In this document: positions 3,501 to 31,965 of the stretch, in pieces | Numbering within the stretch: the first letter of the stretch is position 1 | Layout of the letters: each line of letters begins with the position of its first letter | Assembly (NCBI GenBank): GCA_039815465.1 | Contig: JBCBZG010000018.1 | Span: 21,377-85,376 of the forward strand | Length of the DNA: 64,000 nt | Direction of reading: 5' to 3' | DNA from: Pseudomonadota bacterium | GTDB lineage: Bacteria > Pseudomonadota > Alphaproteobacteria > Rhodobacterales > Rhodobacteraceae | Translations under genes and position numbers: made by a program | The notes under the pieces: generated by a model | The model's database searches: none | Told to the model about the DNA's origin: nothing | What the model saw: the letters and a program-made list of their open reading frames with translations, nothing else

Positions 3501-4850
3501 ATGGACCTCACCGGTATCATCTCCGCGTTTGGCGGGGTCACGTGGGTGGTTGTGACGTTCATCGTCGCGCTCTCGGTGATCGTCGCGGTCCATGAATACG
3601 GCCACTACATCGTGGGCCGCTGGTGCGGGATTAAGGCGGATGTGTTCTCCGTGGGCTTCGGCAAGCCGCTTTACCAACGCACCGACCGCCACGGGACGGT
3701 CTGGCAAATCGCGCTTTTGCCCTTTGGCGGCTACGTCAAATTCCGCGGCGACGCCAATGCCGCCTCCGCAGGGGCCGATGGCGCTGTCATGTCGTCGCTC
3801 AGCAACGAGGAACGACGCGCGACCATGGCCGGGGCCCCGCTTTGGGCACGGTCGGCCACGGTTGCCGCAGGCCCCGTGTTCAACTTCGTCCTTTCCGCCC
3901 TCATCTTTGCCGCGTTCTTTCTGGTGAATGGGGAGGCCAAGGACCCTCCAACCATCCGCACCCTCGTGCCCATGCCCGTCGTGACGGAGCTTGCGCCAGG
4001 CGATGAAATCGTTGCCGTTGAGGGGCTTGAGGTCACAACGACCGACGATCTCACCGCGCTGCGCGATGAGCTGCCGCGCCAGGCGACGCTGCGCTACACG
4101 GTCCGCCGCGATGGCGCGCAGATCAACGTCACCGGGCCCCATGTCTCCCCGCCGTTGGTGCGGGCCGTGTCGCTCGACAGCGCCGCCCAAGACGCCGGTA
4201 TTGAGGAGGGCGACGTCGTCACCGCCATCGATGGGGAGGCTGTCGCGGTCTTCGACGACATGATCGCAATCGTCCAACGCACCCAAGGCAAACCGCTGTC
4301 CATCGACGTCTGGCGGGCAGGGGAGACGCTGACCTTTACCCTTGAACCCCGCGCCACCGACGAACGCCAGGCTGGCGGCGGGTTCGAGACGAACTACCGC
4401 ATCGGCCTGCGCGGCGGGACGTTCTTTGACCCCGTCACCCAGGCTGTGGGCCCGGTGCAGGCCGTCACGACCGCCGTGTCCCAAGTGTGGCTGATCATCG
4501 TGGCCTCGCTCGACGGGCTTTGGAACATCGTCACGGGCGTCATCGGCACCTGCAACCTGTCAGGCCCCGTGGGCATCGCCACCACCGCGGGCACCATGGC
4601 CGCACTTGGGATCGATGATTTCATCTGGTTCATCGCCTTTATCTCCACCGCGGTGGGGCTCGTGAACCTCTTTCCCATCCCCGTGCTCGATGGCGGGCAC
4701 CTCGTGCTCCACGCCTATGAGGCGATCGCGCGCCGCCCACCGTCGGACCGCGTGATGAGCAGCCTGACGATGGTGGGGCTCTTTTTCGTGCTCTTTGTGA
4801 TGATATTTGGCCTGACCAACGACATCTGGTGCCGATTTATCTTGCCCTAG
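3501..4850 (+). CDS. rseP: RIP zinc metalloprotease (site-2 protease)
   Basis: 449 aa with the HEYGHY zinc motif, a central PDZ-like region and the NLFPIPVLDGGH motif. Position upstream of bamA is canonical. Confidence 0.92.
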   Translation: MDLTGIISAFGGVTWVVVTFIVALSVIVAVHEYGHYIVGRWCGIKADVFSVGFGKPLYQRTDRHGTVWQIALLPFGGYVKFRGDANAASAGADGAVMSSLSNEERRATMAGAPLWARSATVAAGPVFNFVLSALIFAAFFLVNGEAKDPPTIRTLVPMPVVTELAPGDEIVAVEGLEVTTTDDLTALRDELPRQATLRYTVRRDGAQINVTGPHVSPPLVRAVSLDSAAQDAGIEEGDVVTAIDGEAVAVFDDMIAIVQRTQGKPLSIDVWRAGETLTFTLEPRATDERQAGGGFETNYRIGLRGGTFFDPVTQAVGPVQAVTTAVSQVWLIIVASLDGLWNIVTGVIGTCNLSGPVGIATTAGTMAALGIDDFIWFIAFISTAVGLVNLFPIPVLDGGHLVLHAYEAIARRPPSDRVMSSLTMVGLFFVLFVMIFGLTNDIWCRFILP

Positions 4851-14095: not shown

Positions 14096-14809
14096 ATGCG
14101 CGTTTTGCTAGTCGAAGACGATCCAACCACCGCAAAGAGCATCGAACTGATGCTCACTCATGCGAGCTTGAATGTGTACTCCACCGACATGGGGGAGGAG
14201 GGCATCGATCTCGCAAAGCTCTACGACTACGACTTAATTCTCCTCGACATCAACCTGCCCGACATGAACGGGTTAGAGGTGCTGCGCCAGCTTAGGCTCA
14301 GCCGGATCGAGACACCGATCCTGATTCTGTCCGGGGATGGCGATACGGAAAGCAAGATTAAGGGGTTCGGCTTCGGGGCCGACGATTACCTCACAAAGCC
14401 CTTCCATCGGGAGGAGTTGGTGGCGCGCATCCACGCCATCATCCGCCGCTCCAAAGGGCACGCTCAGTCGATCATTAAGACAGGTCGCGTGGCTGTGAAC
14501 CTCGACGCCAAAACCGTGGAGGTGGAGGGCAAGTCCGTGCACCTAACCGGCAAAGAATACCAAATGCTGGAACTGTTGTCGCTGCGCAAAGGCACGACGC
14601 TCACAAAGGAGATGTTCCTCAACCACCTCTATGGCGGGATGGATGAGCCGGAGCTCAAGATCATCGACGTGTTCATCTGTAAGCTCCGTAAAAAGCTTTC
14701 GACAGCCACCGATGGCGAGAACCATATCGAAACTGTCTGGGGCCGCGGCTACGTGCTGCGCGACCCAGAACCGGCTGTCGTGGACACGGCCCTGCCCATG
14801 CGCGCCTAA
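14096..14809 (+). CDS. ctrA: cell-cycle response regulator CtrA
   Basis: 237-aa OmpR-family regulator. [10 protein letters not shown]...[13 protein letters not shown]...[12 protein letters not shown] is highly characteristic of alphaproteobacterial CtrA, and sciP lies upstream. Confidence 0.95.
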
Positions 14810-15010: not shown

Positions 15011-15183
15011 AAGACCCGGTGGGGAGCGCCGTGCCGTGCCATGCCAGCACCATTCACAAGGGGCAGGCCTCCCACCTCACAAGCTCCAGATCAGCGCAGG
15101 GCGTTACGGAAACGGACGGTCCATATCGCGCGAGTTATCCACCCAAATCGATCACAATTTTTTCTTACATTTGATCTGTTGAT

Positions 15184-15199
15184 TTAGGGTTTTATTAAC
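15184..15199. promoter_or_regulatory. near-consensus CtrA box TTAG-N7-TTAAC
   Basis: ttag ggtttta ttaac, ending 67 nt upstream of GTG 15266, in an AT-rich stretch. Confidence 0.45.
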
Positions 15200-15265
15200 C
15201 CGGCGACCTGTAGTGAGATTGAAAAAAAGAAAGTACAAATCATCAAGAACTACGGGGTAATTGAT

Positions 15266-18213
<2,948 letters not shown>

Positions 18214-20304
18214 ATGGCCAACCGGCCCGAGATCCTGTTTCCGCTCTTTAGCGGGCTCGAAACCCTGCCGGGCATCGGGCCCAAGACCGCGCAAAACATG
18301 GCGACGCTGGGGATCGAGAAACCGCGCGATCTGCTCTTTCACCTGCCGCATTCCGTCATCGACCGCCGCCCCGTGAAAACGGTCAAAGGCGTGGACTTGC
18401 CCGCGACCCTGACGGTCGAAGTCACCGCCACCCGCCACCGCGCCCCCAGCCGCAAGGGCGCGCCTCACCGCATCTTTGTCGAGGACGCAGAGACAGCCTT
18501 CCAGATCGTCTATTTCAGTGCCAGCGGGCGCTACCTCGAAAACCTGCTGCCCGTGGGCGAACCGCGCGTGGTGTCCGGTAAGTTCGAGCTCTTTGACGGG
18601 GAGGCGAACCTGGCCCACCCCGACTACGTCGTGACGCCCGCGGAACTCAGCGATATCCCGGTGTTCGAACCCGTCTACCCGCTCACCGCAGGGGTGACCC
18701 AAAAACAGCTGGCCAAAGGCGCCAAAGCCGCGCTCACACGGGTGCCGGAGCTCCCCGAATGGGCCGACGCCGAGCTCGTCAAGCGGGAGGGGTGGCCCAC
18801 TACGGCAGACGCCCTTCAATCCGCCCACGCGCCGGAAAACCTGGGCGACGTCAGCCCCACCGCCAAGGCGCGGCAGCGGCTGGCCTATGACGAGCTCTTT
18901 GCCCACCAGCTCACGCTCGCGCTGGCCCGCGCCCGCGACCGCCACGCACCGGGCCGCGTGAGCCAAGGCGACGGAACGCTTCGCCAACGCATCCTGGACG
19001 GCCTGCCATTCGTGCCCACAGCCGCCCAGCTGCGCGCCGCCACCGACATCGCCGCCGACATGGCCCAGCCCAAACGTATGAACCGCCTGCTCCAGGGCGA
19101 CGTGGGCGCAGGCAAAACGCTCGTCGCCTTCCTCGCGCTGCTCACCGCGGTGGAGGCAGGCGGGCAGGGCGTCATGATGGCCCCGACGGAGATCCTGGCT
19201 CGACAGCATCTGGCATCGCTCGCGCCCATGGCGGCAGAGGTCGGCGTGCGGCTCGAACTGCTGACAGGCCGCGACAAAGGCGCAGCACGGCAGGAAAAAC
19301 TCCGCGCGCTCGCGGAAGGCGATATCGGCATCCTCGTGGGCACCCACGCCGTGTTCCAGAAGGACGTTGAATTCGCCGACCTACGGCTCGCTATCGTGGA
19401 CGAACAGCACCGCTTTGGCGTCCGCCAACGCCTGCTGCTCGGTGAAAAAGGGGCCGCCGCGGACGTGCTGGTGATGACAGCAACACCCATCCCGCGCTCG
19501 CTCGCCCTGGCGCAATACGGCGATATGGAGGTCTCGATCCTCGACGAAAAACCACCGGGCCGCACGCCCATCCAAACCGCCACAGTGCCCATGGGCCGCC
19601 TCGACGACGTCGTGGCCAAACTCCGCACCGCCGTGGCCGAGGGCAAACAGGCCTATTGGGTCTGCCCCCTGGTGGAAGAAAGCGAAACGCTCGACATGAC
19701 AGCGGCGGAGGAACGGTTCAAACGCCTCCGCGCCGCACTGGGCGAGGGGAACGTGGACCTCGTCCACGGCCAAATGCCGCCCGCCGACAAAGACGCCGCC
19801 ATGGCCCGTTTCATCGCGGGCGAAACGGCGGTGCTCGTGGCCACGACCGTGATCGAGGTCGGCGTGAACGTCCCAAACGCCACGATCATGGTCATCGAGC
19901 GCGCCGAAAGCTTTGGCCTGGCCCAGCTCCACCAGCTGCGCGGACGGGTGGGGCGCGGCAGCCTAACCTCCACCTGTTTGCTGATGTACCAAGCTCCGCT
20001 GACAGAAAGCGGCGAACGGCGTCTGCGCATCCTCCGCGATACCGAAGACGGGTTCCGCATCGCCGAAGAGGACCTCGCCATCCGCGGCGCAGGCGACATG
20101 ATCGGCACCGCGCAGTCGGGCCTTCCACGGTTTCAGGTGGCCAATCTCGAACGACAGGCGGGGCTCATGGCGCTGGCGCAAAGCGACGCGCGCAAGCTGC
20201 TCGCCGATGACCCCACGCTCGACAGCCCGCGCGGCAAGGCGGCCCGTGTTCTGCTTTGGTTCATGGAGCAAGACCGTGCAATCCGTTTGATTTCCGTAGG
20301 TTAG
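18214..20304 (+). CDS. recG: ATP-dependent DNA helicase RecG
   Basis: 696 aa with GDVGAGKT (Walker A), DEQHRFGV and QLHQLRGRVGRG motifs. The start abuts the ligA stop. Confidence 0.97.
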   Translation: MANRPEILFPLFSGLETLPGIGPKTAQNMATLGIEKPRDLLFHLPHSVIDRRPVKTVKGVDLPATLTVEVTATRHRAPSRKGAPHRIFVEDAETAFQIVYFSASGRYLENLLPVGEPRVVSGKFELFDGEANLAHPDYVVTPAELSDIPVFEPVYPLTAGVTQKQLAKGAKAALTRVPELPEWADAELVKREGWPTTADALQSAHAPENLGDVSPTAKARQRLAYDELFAHQLTLALARARDRHAPGRVSQGDGTLRQRILDGLPFVPTAAQLRAATDIAADMAQPKRMNRLLQGDVGAGKTLVAFLALLTAVEAGGQGVMMAPTEILARQHLASLAPMAAEVGVRLELLTGRDKGAARQEKLRALAEGDIGILVGTHAVFQKDVEFADLRLAIVDEQHRFGVRQRLLLGEKGAAADVLVMTATPIPRSLALAQYGDMEVSILDEKPPGRTPIQTATVPMGRLDDVVAKLRTAVAEGKQAYWVCPLVEESETLDMTAAEERFKRLRAALGEGNVDLVHGQMPPADKDAAMARFIAGETAVLVATTVIEVGVNVPNATIMVIERAESFGLAQLHQLRGRVGRGSLTSTCLLMYQAPLTESGERRLRILRDTEDGFRIAEEDLAIRGAGDMIGTAQSGLPRFQVANLERQAGLMALAQSDARKLLADDPTLDSPRGKAARVLLWFMEQDRAIRLISVG

Positions 20305-20332
20305 CGCCGAACTGCGCAAAATGTTCCGATTT

Positions 20333-20347
20333 GTTCGCAAAAAGTTC
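20333..20347 (+). promoter_or_regulatory. alphaproteobacterial-type LexA (SOS) box GTTC-N7-GTTC
   Basis: gttc gcaaaaa gttc read directly. A third GTTC lies 6 nt upstream (20323-20326). The site ends 70 nt upstream of the 37-aa ORF in an AT-rich spacer after recG. Confidence 0.5.
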
Positions 20348-20416
20348 TTTACGTACTGCGGTGGATGTGAGAACAAAAGGTTAACAAATCGTTCACGGCC
20401 CGGAAGGGAGCCCGCC

Positions 20417-20530
20417 ATGATCACCGCCTTCAAGCGCACCCAGACCCGTAAATTTGCCCAAGACCTCGTGGGCGCTGCCGCGCTGCTCGTCATGCTTTAC
20501 GGGGGGCTTTTGCTGCCCTCGATCCTGTAA
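20417..20530 (+). CDS. 37-aa basic-N-terminus single-TM peptide
   Basis: GGAAGGGAG lies 7 nt upstream of the ATG. Peptide is MITAFKRTQTRKFAQDLVGAAALLVMLYGGLLLPSIL. The longer 69-aa track ORF (20321) has no RBS and starts inside the SOS box. Confidence 0.5.
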   Translation: MITAFKRTQTRKFAQDLVGAAALLVMLYGGLLLPSIL

Positions 20531-20667
20531 GTTTCTGCCTGCGGTCCATCTGACGCCCCTGCGCCAGTCCCTCGCGCAGCGCTGCCCCCAGCAGCGACCC
20601 ATTGGCCCCGTGAGTGCTGCCTCGCTCACCGGTGCCCGCGTCACCCCACTTGGATTGCACACCTAGC

Positions 20668-20703
20668 GCCGCGTGTTCCTGCCAGAACACGCGGCCTTTT
20701 TTT
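20668..20703 (+). terminator. intrinsic terminator
   Basis: An 11-bp perfect stem gccgcgtgttc/gaacacgcggc with a 6-nt loop, followed by c+ttttttt. Confidence 0.65.
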
Positions 20704-20800
20704 GCCCGCGCAGCGGCCACCGCCGCGCATGGAAGAGTTTTTGGAAAACTCTTGGCCCCACCCAGAAATCCAACGATGGCGTGTGCCGTGACCGCGAGCC

Positions 20801-20915
20801 CACCCGCCTCCCTTCTGCGCCAGCGTGCGCTGGCTTGAACCTCAAGGGGGCGCGCTGCGCGCGTTCCGCCTGCGGCGGCCCTCCGGGGGAAGTATTTTTG
20901 GACGAAAGAAAGGGA
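20801..20915 (+). repeat. intergenic hairpin-rich repeat element, copy B (full length)
   Basis: The 5' module is shared with copy A. The 3' module ggaagtatttttggacgaaagaaagg is shared with copy C in reverse orientation. Contains hairpins gccagcg-tg-cgctggc and ccgcc-tg-cggcgg. Confidence 0.85.
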
Positions 20916-20953
20916 GGGAGCGAAAACGTATGGCGCGCCTTTGTGACCTATGC

Positions 20954-21397
20954 CTAAGCCGCTTGGGCGGCTGCGTCTTCGACGGCGCCGATGGTGGCGT
21001 CTAGGGCGAGGAGGATAGACGCGTGGCGGTTTTTGAACGGGGCCGCGGCGCGCAGCACATCGAGCCCGTCGAAGGGTGCCGAAGGGGCCGGCCCTTGTGT
21101 TTGCAGCATCGTTCGAAGGGCGTCTCGGGCTTGGATGAGCTCCGGCAGAGTTCGACCGATCGCGTTGGCTCCCACGACGGCTGCGGCCGCTTGGCCCAGG
21201 GCGCAAGCTTTCACATCCTGCCCAAATGCGGCGATGCGCCCGTCCTTGATCACCACATCTACGGCCACCACCGATCCGCATTGTGGGGAGCGCGCGCGGT
21301 GAGTGCCCATGGGCGTTGCGAGGCGTTCCAGATGCGGGATCTGGGTCGTGAGCGCCAGGATGCGCGTGGAGTAGAGTTGCATCAGGTCCTGATCCAT
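20954..21397 (-). CDS. NifU/IscU-like iron-sulfur cluster scaffold protein
   Basis: 147 aa. The conserved Cys contexts SPQCGSVV and KACALGQAAA resemble SufU/IscU-type scaffolds. Confidence 0.75.
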   Translation of the reverse strand: MDQDLMQLYSTRILALTTQIPHLERLATPMGTHRARSPQCGSVVAVDVVIKDGRIAAFGQDVKACALGQAAAAVVGANAIGRTLPELIQARDALRTMLQTQGPAPSAPFDGLDVLRAAAPFKNRHASILLALDATIGAVEDAAAQAA

Positions 21398-21486
21398 GGT
21401 GCCCCGTCCCGTATGCCCCGTGGCATATGTCTTGTGCCCTTGCCGTGTGTCTTAGATAAGCGCAGCCGCTGCAAAAGGAAATTCAC

Positions 21487-21846
21487 ATGTTCGACCCCGC
21501 GACGCTCAAATACGACGACCGTGGCCTCATCCCCGCGATTGCGCAGGCAGAGGATGGGACCGTGCTCATGATGGCCTGGATGAATGCGGAGGCCGTGGCG
21601 CGGACGTTGGAGACGGGGCGGGTGACCTATTGGTCCCGCTCGCGGCAGAGTTTCTGGGTCAAGGGGGAGACGTCGGGCAATGTTCAGGAACTCGTAGATC
21701 TGCGGGTGGATTGTGACCGCGACACGCTTCTGGCCGTGGTGCGGCAGACGGGGCCAGCGTGTCACACGGGGCGTCTGTCGTGTTTTTACACCGCTGTCCG
21801 GGGTGCGGCTGAGGTGGAGATCATGGCGCCCCTAGAGCCCCACTAG
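21487..21846 (+). CDS. hisI: phosphoribosyl-AMP cyclohydrolase (monofunctional)
   Basis: 119 aa with the pattern [17 protein letters not shown]...DCDRDTLL...[12 protein letters not shown]. Confidence 0.93.
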
Positions 21847-22656
21847 GGCGCGGATGTCGGCGGGGGTGGCGCCCTTTGCCCGGTAGGTGTCGATTGCGCG
21901 GGCGTCGTCGCGTTTGGCGAGCCGCTTGCCCGCCGCGTCGCGGATCAGGCGGTGGTGGTGGTAGCGCGGTGGGGCGTGGCCGAGGAGCGCTAGGATCAGG
22001 ACTTGGATGGGGGTGAAGTCAAAAAGGTCGTCGCCCCGGATCACGTCTGTGATTTCCTCGTGGATGTCGTCGAGGGCGGAGGCGAGGAAGTAGGCCACGA
22101 CCCCATCCTTGCGGCCCACCACGACGTCGCCGGATATCTGAGCAAGTGCGGTCGGGTCCGTCTGGTGGCGGCCTCGATGCGTGGGACCTGTCTCGTCGAA
22201 GGTGGGCAGGCCGATGTGATCTATGGCGCGGGCGAGGTCGAGGCGGAGCGCGTCGCCGGCTTGGCGGTCGGCCATGGCTCGGCCGCGGCAGGTGCCAGGG
22301 TAGGCGCCGGGCAGGTGGCCTTCTTGCGGGGCGGAGAGGGCCGCGCGGATGTCGGCGCGTGAGCAGGAGCAGGGGTAGAGGAGGTTCATGGCCTCCAGCT
22401 GCTCAAGCGCAGCTTGGTAGCGGGGCAGGTGCTGGGACTGGCGGAGCGGGGGCTCTGGCCAAGTGAGGCCAAGCCATTCTAGGTCGTCTTCGACCTGCTG
22501 TATCCAGTGATCCTTGGAGCGTTCGAAATCGGTGTCCTCGTGGCGCAACAGGAACGTGCCGCCCGCGTCGCGGGCCATGTCGTGGGCGAGAATCGCGGAG
22601 TAGGCGTGACCGAGGTGCAGCGGCCCCGTGGGGGACGGCGCGAAGCGGGTGATCAT
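21832..22656 (-). CDS. gluQ: tRNA glutamyl-Q(34) synthetase
   Basis: 274 aa. A truncated GluRS catalytic domain ([18 protein letters not shown]) with no anticodon-binding domain. Confidence 0.9.
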
Positions 22657-30899: not shown

Positions 30900-31113
30900 G
30901 TAAGTTCCTGTTTTATTTATTGTTGACGGAAACGTTTGACCGATACGAGACACTGCCGTGAGCGCGATTGGCGCCTGTTCAGGGTGGACCAGCGGGGGCG
31001 CATGCGTCGATAGGGAATGCTGCAACGATGGCTTTGCGGAATTGAGTGAGGCACCAGGTTGTGTGACCGCCCGCGCATGACGCCCCTAGGCTGAACGGCG
31101 CAATGGCGTTGCC

Positions 31114-31965
31114 CTAGGGTGTGCCTGAGCCGCCGAGGAGCGCCTTCCCCATGCAGTCCTGCACCATGTCGATACCCACACGCACGAGCGGGTCGAGTTT
31201 TCGGCTGACATGGTAGCTGATCCAAATGGGGAGCGTCACACGGTCGGTGATCTCCGGGACCGGGACGAGGTCCGCGTCGGCTTCCCCCATGCTGATGGGC
31301 AGCATCATGGCGACGGGCAGCTGCTTGGCCAGGGACATGGCAAGCGCCAAGCTTTCGATCCAAATCCGCGGGCTGTCTTCGAAATGGTCGCGTAGGGGGC
31401 GCTCGGCGGTGTGTTTGCTGGCGCCGTAGCCGATGGACACCCAGCTGCTGGCGGTCTCGGCATAGGAGCTATGCGCATAGGCGCCGAGGTTGAGCGCGCC
31501 AATGCGCTGGCGTACCAGGCGTCCCTCCTCGGGTTCGTTGAAGCCGACGACGAGGTCGGTTTCGGCATAGGCCAAGCTGCGGGGTTTCACCGAGAGGTCA
31601 AATCGTAATTCTGGGTGCGCCTGGGCAAAGCATGGCAGGGTTTTTAGGCCGCTAATCTCCATCAGGCTGTGGTCGCAGGTCAGCCGCAGCACGGAGCCGG
31701 GCACGGGCCCTTGGTTGGAGCTTGCCTCCAAGCCCGTCAGTTGCCGTTCGGTCCGTTCGGCGATGGAGATCAGATTGCGGCACGTCTCCGTAGGTTCCCA
31801 CGCTTTATCGAGGCGCAAAAATAGGGTTTCCCCCATGGTTTCGGTCAACCGCTCGATCCGCCGGGAGACCGTCGCGACGTTCGTGCGCAGCGCGTGCGCC
31901 GCGCCGCTCATGGTGGAATGCCGATACAAGGCTAAACAAAAACGCAGATCGTCCCAGTGTTGCAT
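31114..31965 (-). CDS. LysR-family transcriptional regulator
   Basis: 283 aa with the N-terminal HTH LRFCLALYRHSTMSGAAHALRTNVATVSRRIERLE. Divergent from the ABC operon. Confidence 0.9.
   Translation of the reverse strand: MQHWDDLRFCLALYRHSTMSGAAHALRTNVATVSRRIERLTETMGETLFLRLDKAWEPTETCRNLISIAERTERQLTGLEASSNQGPVPGSVLRLTCDHSLMEISGLKTLPCFAQAHPELRFDLSVKPRSLAYAETDLVVGFNEPEEGRLVRQRIGALNLGAYAHSSYAETASSWVSIGYGASKHTAERPLRDHFEDSPRIWIESLALAMSLAKQLPVAMMLPISMGEADADLVPVPEITDRVTLPIWISYHVSRKLDPLVRVGIDMVQDCMGKALLGGSGTP

Follow-up and report, generated by a model that had tools for sequence, protein, structure and literature searches.

A predicted LexA-controlled membrane peptide gene with a conserved, structured 3´ untranslated region downstream of recG in Rhodobacterales

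The DNA immediately downstream of recG in a 64,000-nucleotide (nt) stretch from a Rhodobacteraceae bacterium (contig JBCBZG010000018.1; this whole stretch is called the window, and all positions refer to it) appears to hold a transcription unit of its own, ~320-340 nt long, that encodes a small membrane peptide and would be repressed by LexA as a member of the SOS regulon. From the sequence comparisons described here, we give this reading a probability of about 0.72. The peptide module is also found downstream of recG in 80 Rhodobacterales genomes, which were obtained by using the RecG C-terminus as the query against one genome per species and taking the 80 best RecG matches (RecG identity 76-84%). 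The source genome is not among these 80 loci, and the 81 sequences referred to below are the 80 loci plus the window. Across the 80 loci, the order ligA-recG-peptide-(SufU-like, minus strand)-hisI is kept in 73-78. Every element named in a preliminary description of this region is present where that description placed it, and several further elements were found.

The peptide is encoded by a small open reading frame (ORF) with a Shine-Dalgarno (SD) sequence ahead of it:

20402 to 20410, + strand: SD sequence GGAAGGGAG, 6 nt before the ATG
20417 to 20530, + strand: small ORF of 37 codons plus stop, MITAFKRTQTRKFAQDLVGAAALLVMLYGGLLLPSIL, with its ATG at 20417 and its TAA at 20528-20530

Judging from its pattern of conservation, this ORF is almost certainly a real protein-coding gene under purifying selection. 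An SD sequence, an ATG and an ORF of 36-45 codons are present in 80 of the 81 sequences, the exception being cut by a contig end, and 49 of the ORFs are exactly 40 codons long. In the related loci the motif ahead of the aligned ATG is of the GGAG or AGGAG type, and in most loci tblastn searches with the peptide place a homologue 100-230 nt past the recG stop. Pairwise differences average 0.47, 0.31 and 0.60 at codon positions 1, 2 and 3, i.e., variability follows the order 3>1>2, and the median Nei-Gojobori ratio of nonsynonymous to synonymous change (dN/dS) is 0.43, with synonymous sites near saturation. In the 49 sequences with a 40-codon ORF, stop codons interrupt the +1 frame in all 49 and the +2 frame in 17, and the frame of the ORF in none. 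The ORF had been put forward as a gene in the preliminary description, and both the tBLASTn conservation and the non-neutral dN/dS bear this out. The peptide consensus is MxxxIKxxxxRSxxTL(L)xDAxGxxAL(x)VMLxxGLHLPxxx, and a profile search of 1.84 billion cluster representatives gave 581 matches at E<=1e-3. The 150 matches listed are ~40 amino acids (aa) long, or 50-79 aa where gene callers took an upstream start. In the sources, members of the family are named "hypothetical protein" only, with no Pfam domain recorded. When the window peptide and 78 family members were scanned against Pfam and NCBIfam, only scattered chance matches were seen at E<=1, and neither 72,556 plasmids nor 50,697 phage records gave a tblastn match to the peptide.

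The first 16 residues of the window peptide include four lysines or arginines and one aspartate, the remaining 21 are uncharged and hydrophobic, and this pattern is kept across the alignment. AlphaFold2 (AF2), run with the family alignment, gives one continuous helix over residues 3-36 at a mean predicted local distance difference test score (pLDDT) of 79.6. Composition and AF2 model thus agree with the basic N-terminus and single helix described before, and membrane insertion is predicted. By the positive-inside rule, we infer a tail-anchored topology with the N-terminus inside and the C-terminus outside.

A longer reading frame of 69 aa, starting at ATG 20321, was considered and rejected, since this ATG lies within a GTTC repeat, the frame of the extension varies between genomes, and the SD sequence and aligned ATG are at 20417. 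The in-frame ATG at 20321 (aATGTTC) has equivalents that gene callers used in many genomes. The database entries of 50-79 aa (P0011, P0060, P0067, P0128 and others) accordingly begin with MFxxxLKKFFT... or MFLKSSL..., an N-terminus that is translated operator, not protein. The expectation that the gene would be missed by annotation holds for the sequence at hand, for which the exact peptide, as 37 or 69 aa, is absent from the records as a called gene; many other genomes do annotate it, as "hypothetical protein".

Upstream of the ORF lie the elements that we propose to control it:

20323 to 20347, + strand: three direct GTTC repeats, GTTC-N6-GTTC-N7-GTTC, with GTTC at 20323, 20333 and 20344
20329 to 20351, + strand: LexA-type box 1, ATTTGTTCGCAAAAAGTTCTTTA, with the core GTTC-N7-GTTC at 20333-20347, abutting the -35-like hexamer
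20348 to 20353, + strand: predicted -35-like hexamer TTTACG, after a conserved A-tract and directly 3´ of box 1
20367 to 20389, - strand: LexA-type box 2, ATTTGTTAACCTTTTGTTCTCAC, GTTA-N7-GTTC, overlapping the -10-like region and the predicted transcription start
20368 to 20376, + strand: predicted extended -10-like element TGnGAACAA, 17 nt past the -35-like hexamer and inside box 2

The window contains a single copy of the composite pattern GTTC-N6-GTTC-N7-GTTC, and none of 100 shuffles contains any; 71 of the 80 related loci likewise have exactly one, in the corresponding position. An exact GTTC-N7-GTTC is found within 135 nt of the recG stop in 73 of the 81 sequences. The consensus of this upstream DNA is ttTGTTCnCAAATGTTCTcAAAAAGTTCTTTAC, then ~12 variable nt, then (A/G)TGAGAACAAAGnGGCAACAAAg, and in the related loci it is better conserved than the peptide coding sequence. 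When the upstream block is translated, its frame relative to the ORF differs between genomes; what is conserved in the block is therefore DNA or RNA sequence and not a protein.

To score the boxes we used a LexA position-specific scoring matrix (PSSM) made from 80 distinct 23-mers, the alphaproteobacterial sites of Sanchez-Alberola et al. 2012 (PMC3323433, Additional file 4), which come from Agrobacterium, Brucella, Ochrobactrum, Sinorhizobium, Paracoccus and Rhodobacter; one listed site located after recG was excluded. Box 2 scores 20.2 bits and ranks first in the 64-kb window on both strands (~128,000 positions), and box 1 scores 14.6 bits and ranks fourth. In leave-one-out controls, 14 Rhodobacter sphaeroides and Paracoccus denitrificans sites (recA, lexA, uvrA, ruvC and other SOS genes) score 5.6-32 bits. 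Across the 80 loci, the median is 16.3 bits for box 1 and 19.1 bits for box 2, the scores reach at least 12 bits in 76 and 77 loci, respectively, and box 2 stands at a fixed offset of 38 nt from box 1. The best score elsewhere per ~6.9-kb locus has a median of 7.0 bits, and both boxes top all other sites in 74 of the 80 loci. Box 2 is much like the listed ruvC and recA LexA sites, and the distances of the boxes from the start codon (about -39 and -77) are inside the range of listed sites. The GTTC repeats had been read as a LexA operator in the preliminary description; in silico, their PSSM scores are on a par with those of known Rhodobacterales sites and they are kept in all 80 loci, yet the box on the minus strand, which had gone unnoticed, scores higher. 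As that description also noted, the operator has no upstream minus-strand gene that it could serve. Taken with the fixed arrangement of the boxes, these scores indicate that the peptide gene is quite probably under LexA/SOS control.

The two boxes seem to flank a promoter-like core. At the -35-like position, relatives have TTTACA, TTGACG, TTGCAT or TTGATT. The sequence (A/G)TGAGAACAAAG is almost invariant over the 80 loci, and 77 of them have GTTCT and GAACA 32 nt apart. Transcription is predicted to start near 20383, ~7 nt past TGAGAACAA, which would leave a leader of ~34 nt.

In the table of Sanchez-Alberola et al., a LexA site is predicted at +2092 from the start of P. denitrificans recG (Pden_4082; PMC3323433), a position just beyond the recG stop, and this site, filed under recG, is evidently the same element and probably belongs to the peptide gene. 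The R. sphaeroides entry puts the site at -16 of recG (RSP_2623; PMC3323433), which suggests a different arrangement there. The LexA site table for D. shibae covers only the regions upstream of annotated genes, and recG in that genome precedes a 400-nt unannotated gap.

Downstream of the ORF, the transcript would continue into a long 3´ untranslated region (UTR) and end at a terminator:

20531 to 20667, + strand: structured 3´ UTR of 137 nt, in which long-range stems close around hairpins that have C/U-rich loops
20668 to 20703, + strand: intrinsic terminator found by the terminator scan, with an 11-bp stem (20668-20695), a 6-nt loop and CTTTTTTT

The preliminary description had treated these ~135 nt as plain untranslated RNA; they are instead a conserved structured RNA with strong covariation. 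Six closely related sequences were used to build a covariance model (R1), which matches the window at 20528-20703 (25.5 bits, E 3e-5) and gives one match each in 76 of the 80 loci (77 of 81 with the window), always on the + strand and right after the ORF. In the alignment fitted to this model, on which covariation is measured, paired cells make up 90.4%, as opposed to 67.5% in shuffles, and 0 of 500 shuffles reach this value; double changes are seen in 40 of 43 pairs, with 609 double-change cells against 176 in shuffles, and the covariation score is 0.37, compared with 0.04-0.06 when partners are slid by 1-3 columns. RNAalifold, run on the same alignment but not given the structure of the model, also finds the terminator and both long-range closing stems, and 22 of 25 pairs carry compensatory changes. 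From this covariation we consider the 3´ UTR structure very probably functional. In separate minimum free energy (MFE) folds of each locus, the sequences (G)UCCCA, CUGCC(U) and UGCCU(C) reappear in loops on stems that differ, and directly 3´ of the ORF stop there is a conserved single-stranded UUUCUGCCUGC. No Rfam 15 family matches the 3´ UTR, either in the window at E<=5 or in eight representative loci at E<=1. A ROSE_3 match of Rfam within recG (E=4.6) was set aside as chance.

The terminator described earlier is real and conserved: a homologue follows the ORF stop in at least 76 of the 80 loci, mostly after 150-200 nt (range about 110-250 nt). Across the order its stem is GCCGCCGC...GCGGCGG followed by U7, with compensatory changes. 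In the window the stem deviates (GCCGCGTGTTC...GAACACGCGGC), and the window is also among the weakest matches to the 3´ UTR model; it is therefore a divergent member. A hok-like fold-back of the 5´ on the 3´ end was considered, as UGCCUCUU is complementary to AAGAGGCA in most loci, and was rejected, as the loci with a variant 5´ sequence, the window included, are not compensated. In the MFE folds, the SD sequence pairs mainly with the LP codons.

Several observations weigh against an independent LexA-repressed unit. The bare GTTC-N7-GTTC motif is found twice in the window where 1.83 are expected, i.e., at chance level, and the significance of the operator lies in the composite pattern and its conservation, not in the single motif. 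The core of box 2 deviates at one base, reading GTTA in the window and GTTG in most relatives. The spacer of box 1 is rich in A and its second half reads AGTTC, where most known sites have a T-rich spacer and TGTTC; the A-tract is in the place of a proximal UP element and possibly doubles as an UP-like element, which may be why the spacer is A-rich. The PSSM favours AT-rich DNA while the genome is GC-rich, and the other high matches, at 15218 and 30900, are AT-rich with imperfect cores and resemble artefacts. On the side of transcription, a sigma-70-type consensus scan called no promoter at the module, and GAACAA is a poor -10-like hexamer. The terminator scan, which covered 19800-22000, found no terminator between recG and the ORF, so that some read-through from recG is possible, and the site at 20668-20703 is the sole terminator-like site in that interval, a number that is not above chance but below the shuffle mean.

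Some details of these other matches may be recorded here. The second exact GTTC-N7-GTTC (GTTCTGCTTTGGTTC; 20248-20262, + strand) is within the last 60 nt of recG, scores 11.2 bits and is probably a chance occurrence. The match at 15218-15240 (- strand) is a spurious 18-bit hit in a very AT-rich intergenic stretch after ctrA (15100-15260). The match at 30900-30922 (+ strand; 16.7 bits, GTAAGTTCCTGTTTTATTTATTG) abuts the apparent start (CAT) of a minus-strand ORF, and only its first half is a true GTTC; the ORFs nearby have no family match except a LysR-type regulator at 31114-31965 (- strand).

A first alternative, which overlaps with the reading preferred here, is that the main product of the locus is an SOS-induced regulatory RNA, either dual-function or derived from the 3´ UTR, and that the peptide is secondary. 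The strong covariation of the 3´ UTR, with loops that stay constant on stems that vary, is what would be expected of such an RNA, and the C/U-rich loops GUCCCA, CUGCCU and UGCCUC could pair with target mRNAs. The long U-run of the terminator resembles that of Hfq-type small RNAs (sRNAs), the single-stranded UUUCUGCCUGC is conserved, and the ccaF1-CcsR locus of R. sphaeroides is reportedly arranged in a similar way. However, the ORF is under purifying selection and has a constant length and an SD sequence, which means that the peptide is not incidental. Signs of a separate promoter or of processing were not seen, and the Rfam families do not match. On balance, we regard a primarily RNA-based function as unlikely.

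Still less likely, in our view, is a type I toxin of the TisB or DinQ kind that would dissipate the proton-motive force and lead to dormancy, with the 3´ UTR keeping the primary transcript inert until it is processed, in the manner of hok. The peptide is small, hydrophobic and downstream of LexA-type boxes, the mRNA has a long, conserved and structured non-coding part, and the SD sequence is paired in most loci in whole-mRNA MFE folds, all of which would suit a toxin. The parallel with SidA and TisB drawn in the preliminary description stands for the architecture, by analogy, but models of TisB and other toxin families give no match. Between 19800 and 22000 the minus strand has no promoter- or terminator-like site and the conserved features all read on the + strand; there is thus no sign of an antisense antitoxin. 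Unlike the patchy, multicopy type I loci, the module keeps strict synteny in 80 genomes, each locus carrying a single copy, and the peptide had no match in the plasmid and phage collections. The closing stems are confined to the 3´ UTR, with no covarying 5´-3´ pairing found. Pore-forming TisB has charged residues in its helix, whereas the helix here is uncharged; with its conserved small residues, it therefore suits helix-helix binding over pore formation.

The GTTC repeats could also be bound by a regulator other than LexA, for example a response regulator of the OmpR/CtrA type, which would leave the unit outside the SOS regulon. The repeats have a periodicity of ~10-11 bp, one of the spacings is N6, which is not that of LexA, the spacer of box 1 is atypically A-rich, and ctrA is 6 kb upstream. 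Against this, a LexA PSSM made independently of these loci ranks the two sites above all others in 74 of 80 loci, the N7 spacing is present in 73 of the 81 sequences, and box 2 is near the listed ruvC and recA sites. A CtrA site (TTAA-N7-TTAAC) was considered and rejected: the window has only the half-match TTAAC-N6-TTCA (20381-20395) that the preliminary description had pointed out, its bases are part of box 2, and TTAAC is not conserved, relatives having GGCAAC (most) or GTCAAC at this place. We consider control by a regulator other than LexA quite improbable. That there is no separate gene, and that the DNA encodes only the 3´ tail of the ligA-recG transcript, with a role in the termination or stability of recG and with an ORF that arose by chance, agrees with the lack of a terminator between recG and the ORF and with the sole terminator at 20668-20703, but is highly improbable in view of an ORF with SD sequence, fixed length and a dN/dS of 0.43 kept in 80 genomes, a promoter-like core flanked by operator-like boxes at fixed spacing, and a module that stays intact when displaced from recG.

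We propose the following model for the LexA-controlled peptide gene. In undamaged cells, LexA would occupy two sites, 20329-20351 at the -35-like element and 20367-20389 over the -10-like element and transcription start. Upon DNA damage, RecA-stimulated self-cleavage of LexA would free the promoter and allow synthesis of a ~320-340-nt mRNA, from which the strong SD sequence and ATG (20417) would direct translation of the 37-aa peptide (40 aa in most relatives). The basic N-terminal ~16 residues would stay in the cytoplasm, the uncharged C-terminal helix would cross the inner membrane, and the tail-anchored peptide of ~40 aa would build up there. The folded 3´ UTR would probably set the stability or translation of the message, or serve as a 3´ UTR-derived regulatory RNA. 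By binding a membrane component of the divisome, the peptide could bring about an SOS division block.

SOS regulons usually include a small division inhibitor, such as SulA in gamma-proteobacteria, SidA in Caulobacter, and those of several Gram-positives. A literature search did not find an SOS division inhibitor described for Rhodobacterales. We suggest, tentatively and at somewhat less than even odds, that the peptide is an SOS-induced division inhibitor and a functional analogue of Caulobacter SidA, though presumably not a relative of it in sequence. This is favoured because such inhibitors are near-universal in SOS responses, because SidA is likewise a tiny LexA-controlled membrane protein, because none was found in the literature for Rhodobacterales, because the gene is universal in the order as a syntenic single copy and had no match in the plasmid and phage collections, and because the uncharged helix with its conserved small residues suits helix-helix binding. 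Division inhibition thus seems the most likely role, with a TisB-like toxin less likely and a dual peptide/RNA regulator possible and in keeping with all the data. It is a more doubtful proposition that one bifunctional SOS transcript is common to all Rhodobacterales, marine roseobacters included, that its peptide is the missing DNA-damage division checkpoint of the order and that, in addition, the 3´ UTR with its three C/U-rich loops is released as a regulatory RNA that reprograms other mRNAs in the course of the SOS response. LexA and CtrA are reported to control gene-transfer-agent production in Rhodobacterales, and an SOS-released 3´ UTR RNA might tie into this network.

The module is in a 650-nt gap between recG and a convergent gene for a SufU/NifU-like protein. 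The neighbouring genes in the window are:

14096 to 14809, + strand: ctrA, the cell-cycle regulator (NCBIfam Rhodobacterales CtrA, 422 bits)
16030 to 18213, + strand: ligA (family search)
18214 to 20304, + strand: recG, with its stop at 20302-20304 (NCBIfam RecG, 1096 bits)
20954 to 21397, - strand: SufU/NifU-like gene, convergent and downstream of the module
21487 to 21846, + strand: hisI (family search)
21832 to 22656, - strand: gluQRS (family search)

The gene for CtrA is ~6 kb upstream of the peptide module, and the next ORF after it, at 15266-15883, has no family match. The SufU-like product scores only 38.7 bits against SufU (TIGR01994; cut-off 92.5), with no Pfam match at E<=0.01, and its gene is at the same position in 75 of the 81 sequences. 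In four loci (L004, L030, L049 and L061), inserted DNA moves the whole module ~100-1400 nt away from recG and leaves it intact. The module of L061 is ~1.3 kb past the recG stop, and in L049, from a metagenome-assembled genome of Pseudodonghicola, the insert begins with two near-identical copies of a ~68-nt unit (GCGCGCCCGGAAAAAGGTCCGGTGGACCTTTTTCAGCGCCGAACGGGCGAAGCCCCGGG...; 3900-4030).

The peptide gene is a concrete candidate for the so far missing SOS effector of Rhodobacterales, the order of the abundant marine roseobacters and of the model genera Rhodobacter and Paracoccus. It brings together a conserved small-protein family and a structured RNA motif, neither of which is represented in Pfam, NCBIfam or Rfam. 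It also illustrates an annotation problem, as the ORF is either overlooked by gene callers or given a spurious start at an upstream ATG within the operator. The LexA site listed under P. denitrificans recG can probably be reassigned to an unannotated peptide gene, and that unexplained site after recG, in a supplementary table of 2012, is the only earlier trace of the locus that we found (PMC3323433).

In its core tetranucleotides and their separation by 7 nt, as well as in the T/G preferences beside box 2 and the placing of the boxes relative to the start codon, the operator is within the range of listed alphaproteobacterial LexA sites. Unlike these, it has two opposed boxes that bracket a predicted promoter core and an extra GTTC at N6, one helical turn upstream, and box 1 differs from ordinary sites in its A-tract spacer. 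The layout of ORF, hairpins and terminator is similar to that of the R. sphaeroides ccaF1 (RSP_6037)-CcsR1-4 locus, where a small ORF is said to be followed, on the same transcript and under a stress-responsive promoter, by hairpins with C-rich loops and a terminator. CcaF1 is reportedly a soluble DUF1127 protein made from an RpoHI/HII-dependent promoter, and the CcsR loop motif is said to be CCUCCUCCC; the 3´ UTR described here matches no Rfam family, CcsR included.

With TisB/IstR-1 and DinQ/AgrB of Escherichia coli, the locus shares (putative) LexA control, a small hydrophobic peptide and extensive non-coding structure on the mRNA. It is unlike TisB and DinQ in that no toxin model matches, no antisense or divergent sRNA gene was detected, the gene is a syntenic single copy, the helix is uncharged, and the conserved structure is in the 3´ rather than the 5´ UTR. 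SidA of Caulobacter is a 29-aa LexA-controlled inner-membrane protein (PMC4211646). It has in common with the family described here an alphaproteobacterial host, LexA boxes of the GTTC-N7-GTTC type, a very small predicted single-pass peptide and a stand-alone unit (PMC4211646, PMC12700426). Unlike SidA, this family is always beside recG, has been seen so far only in Rhodobacterales, and has ~16-20 conserved N-terminal residues predicted to be cytoplasmic, two convergent boxes and a long structured 3´ UTR. The predicted dual-box operator together with the structured 3´ UTR is what would set this locus apart among SOS-type genes for small membrane peptides.

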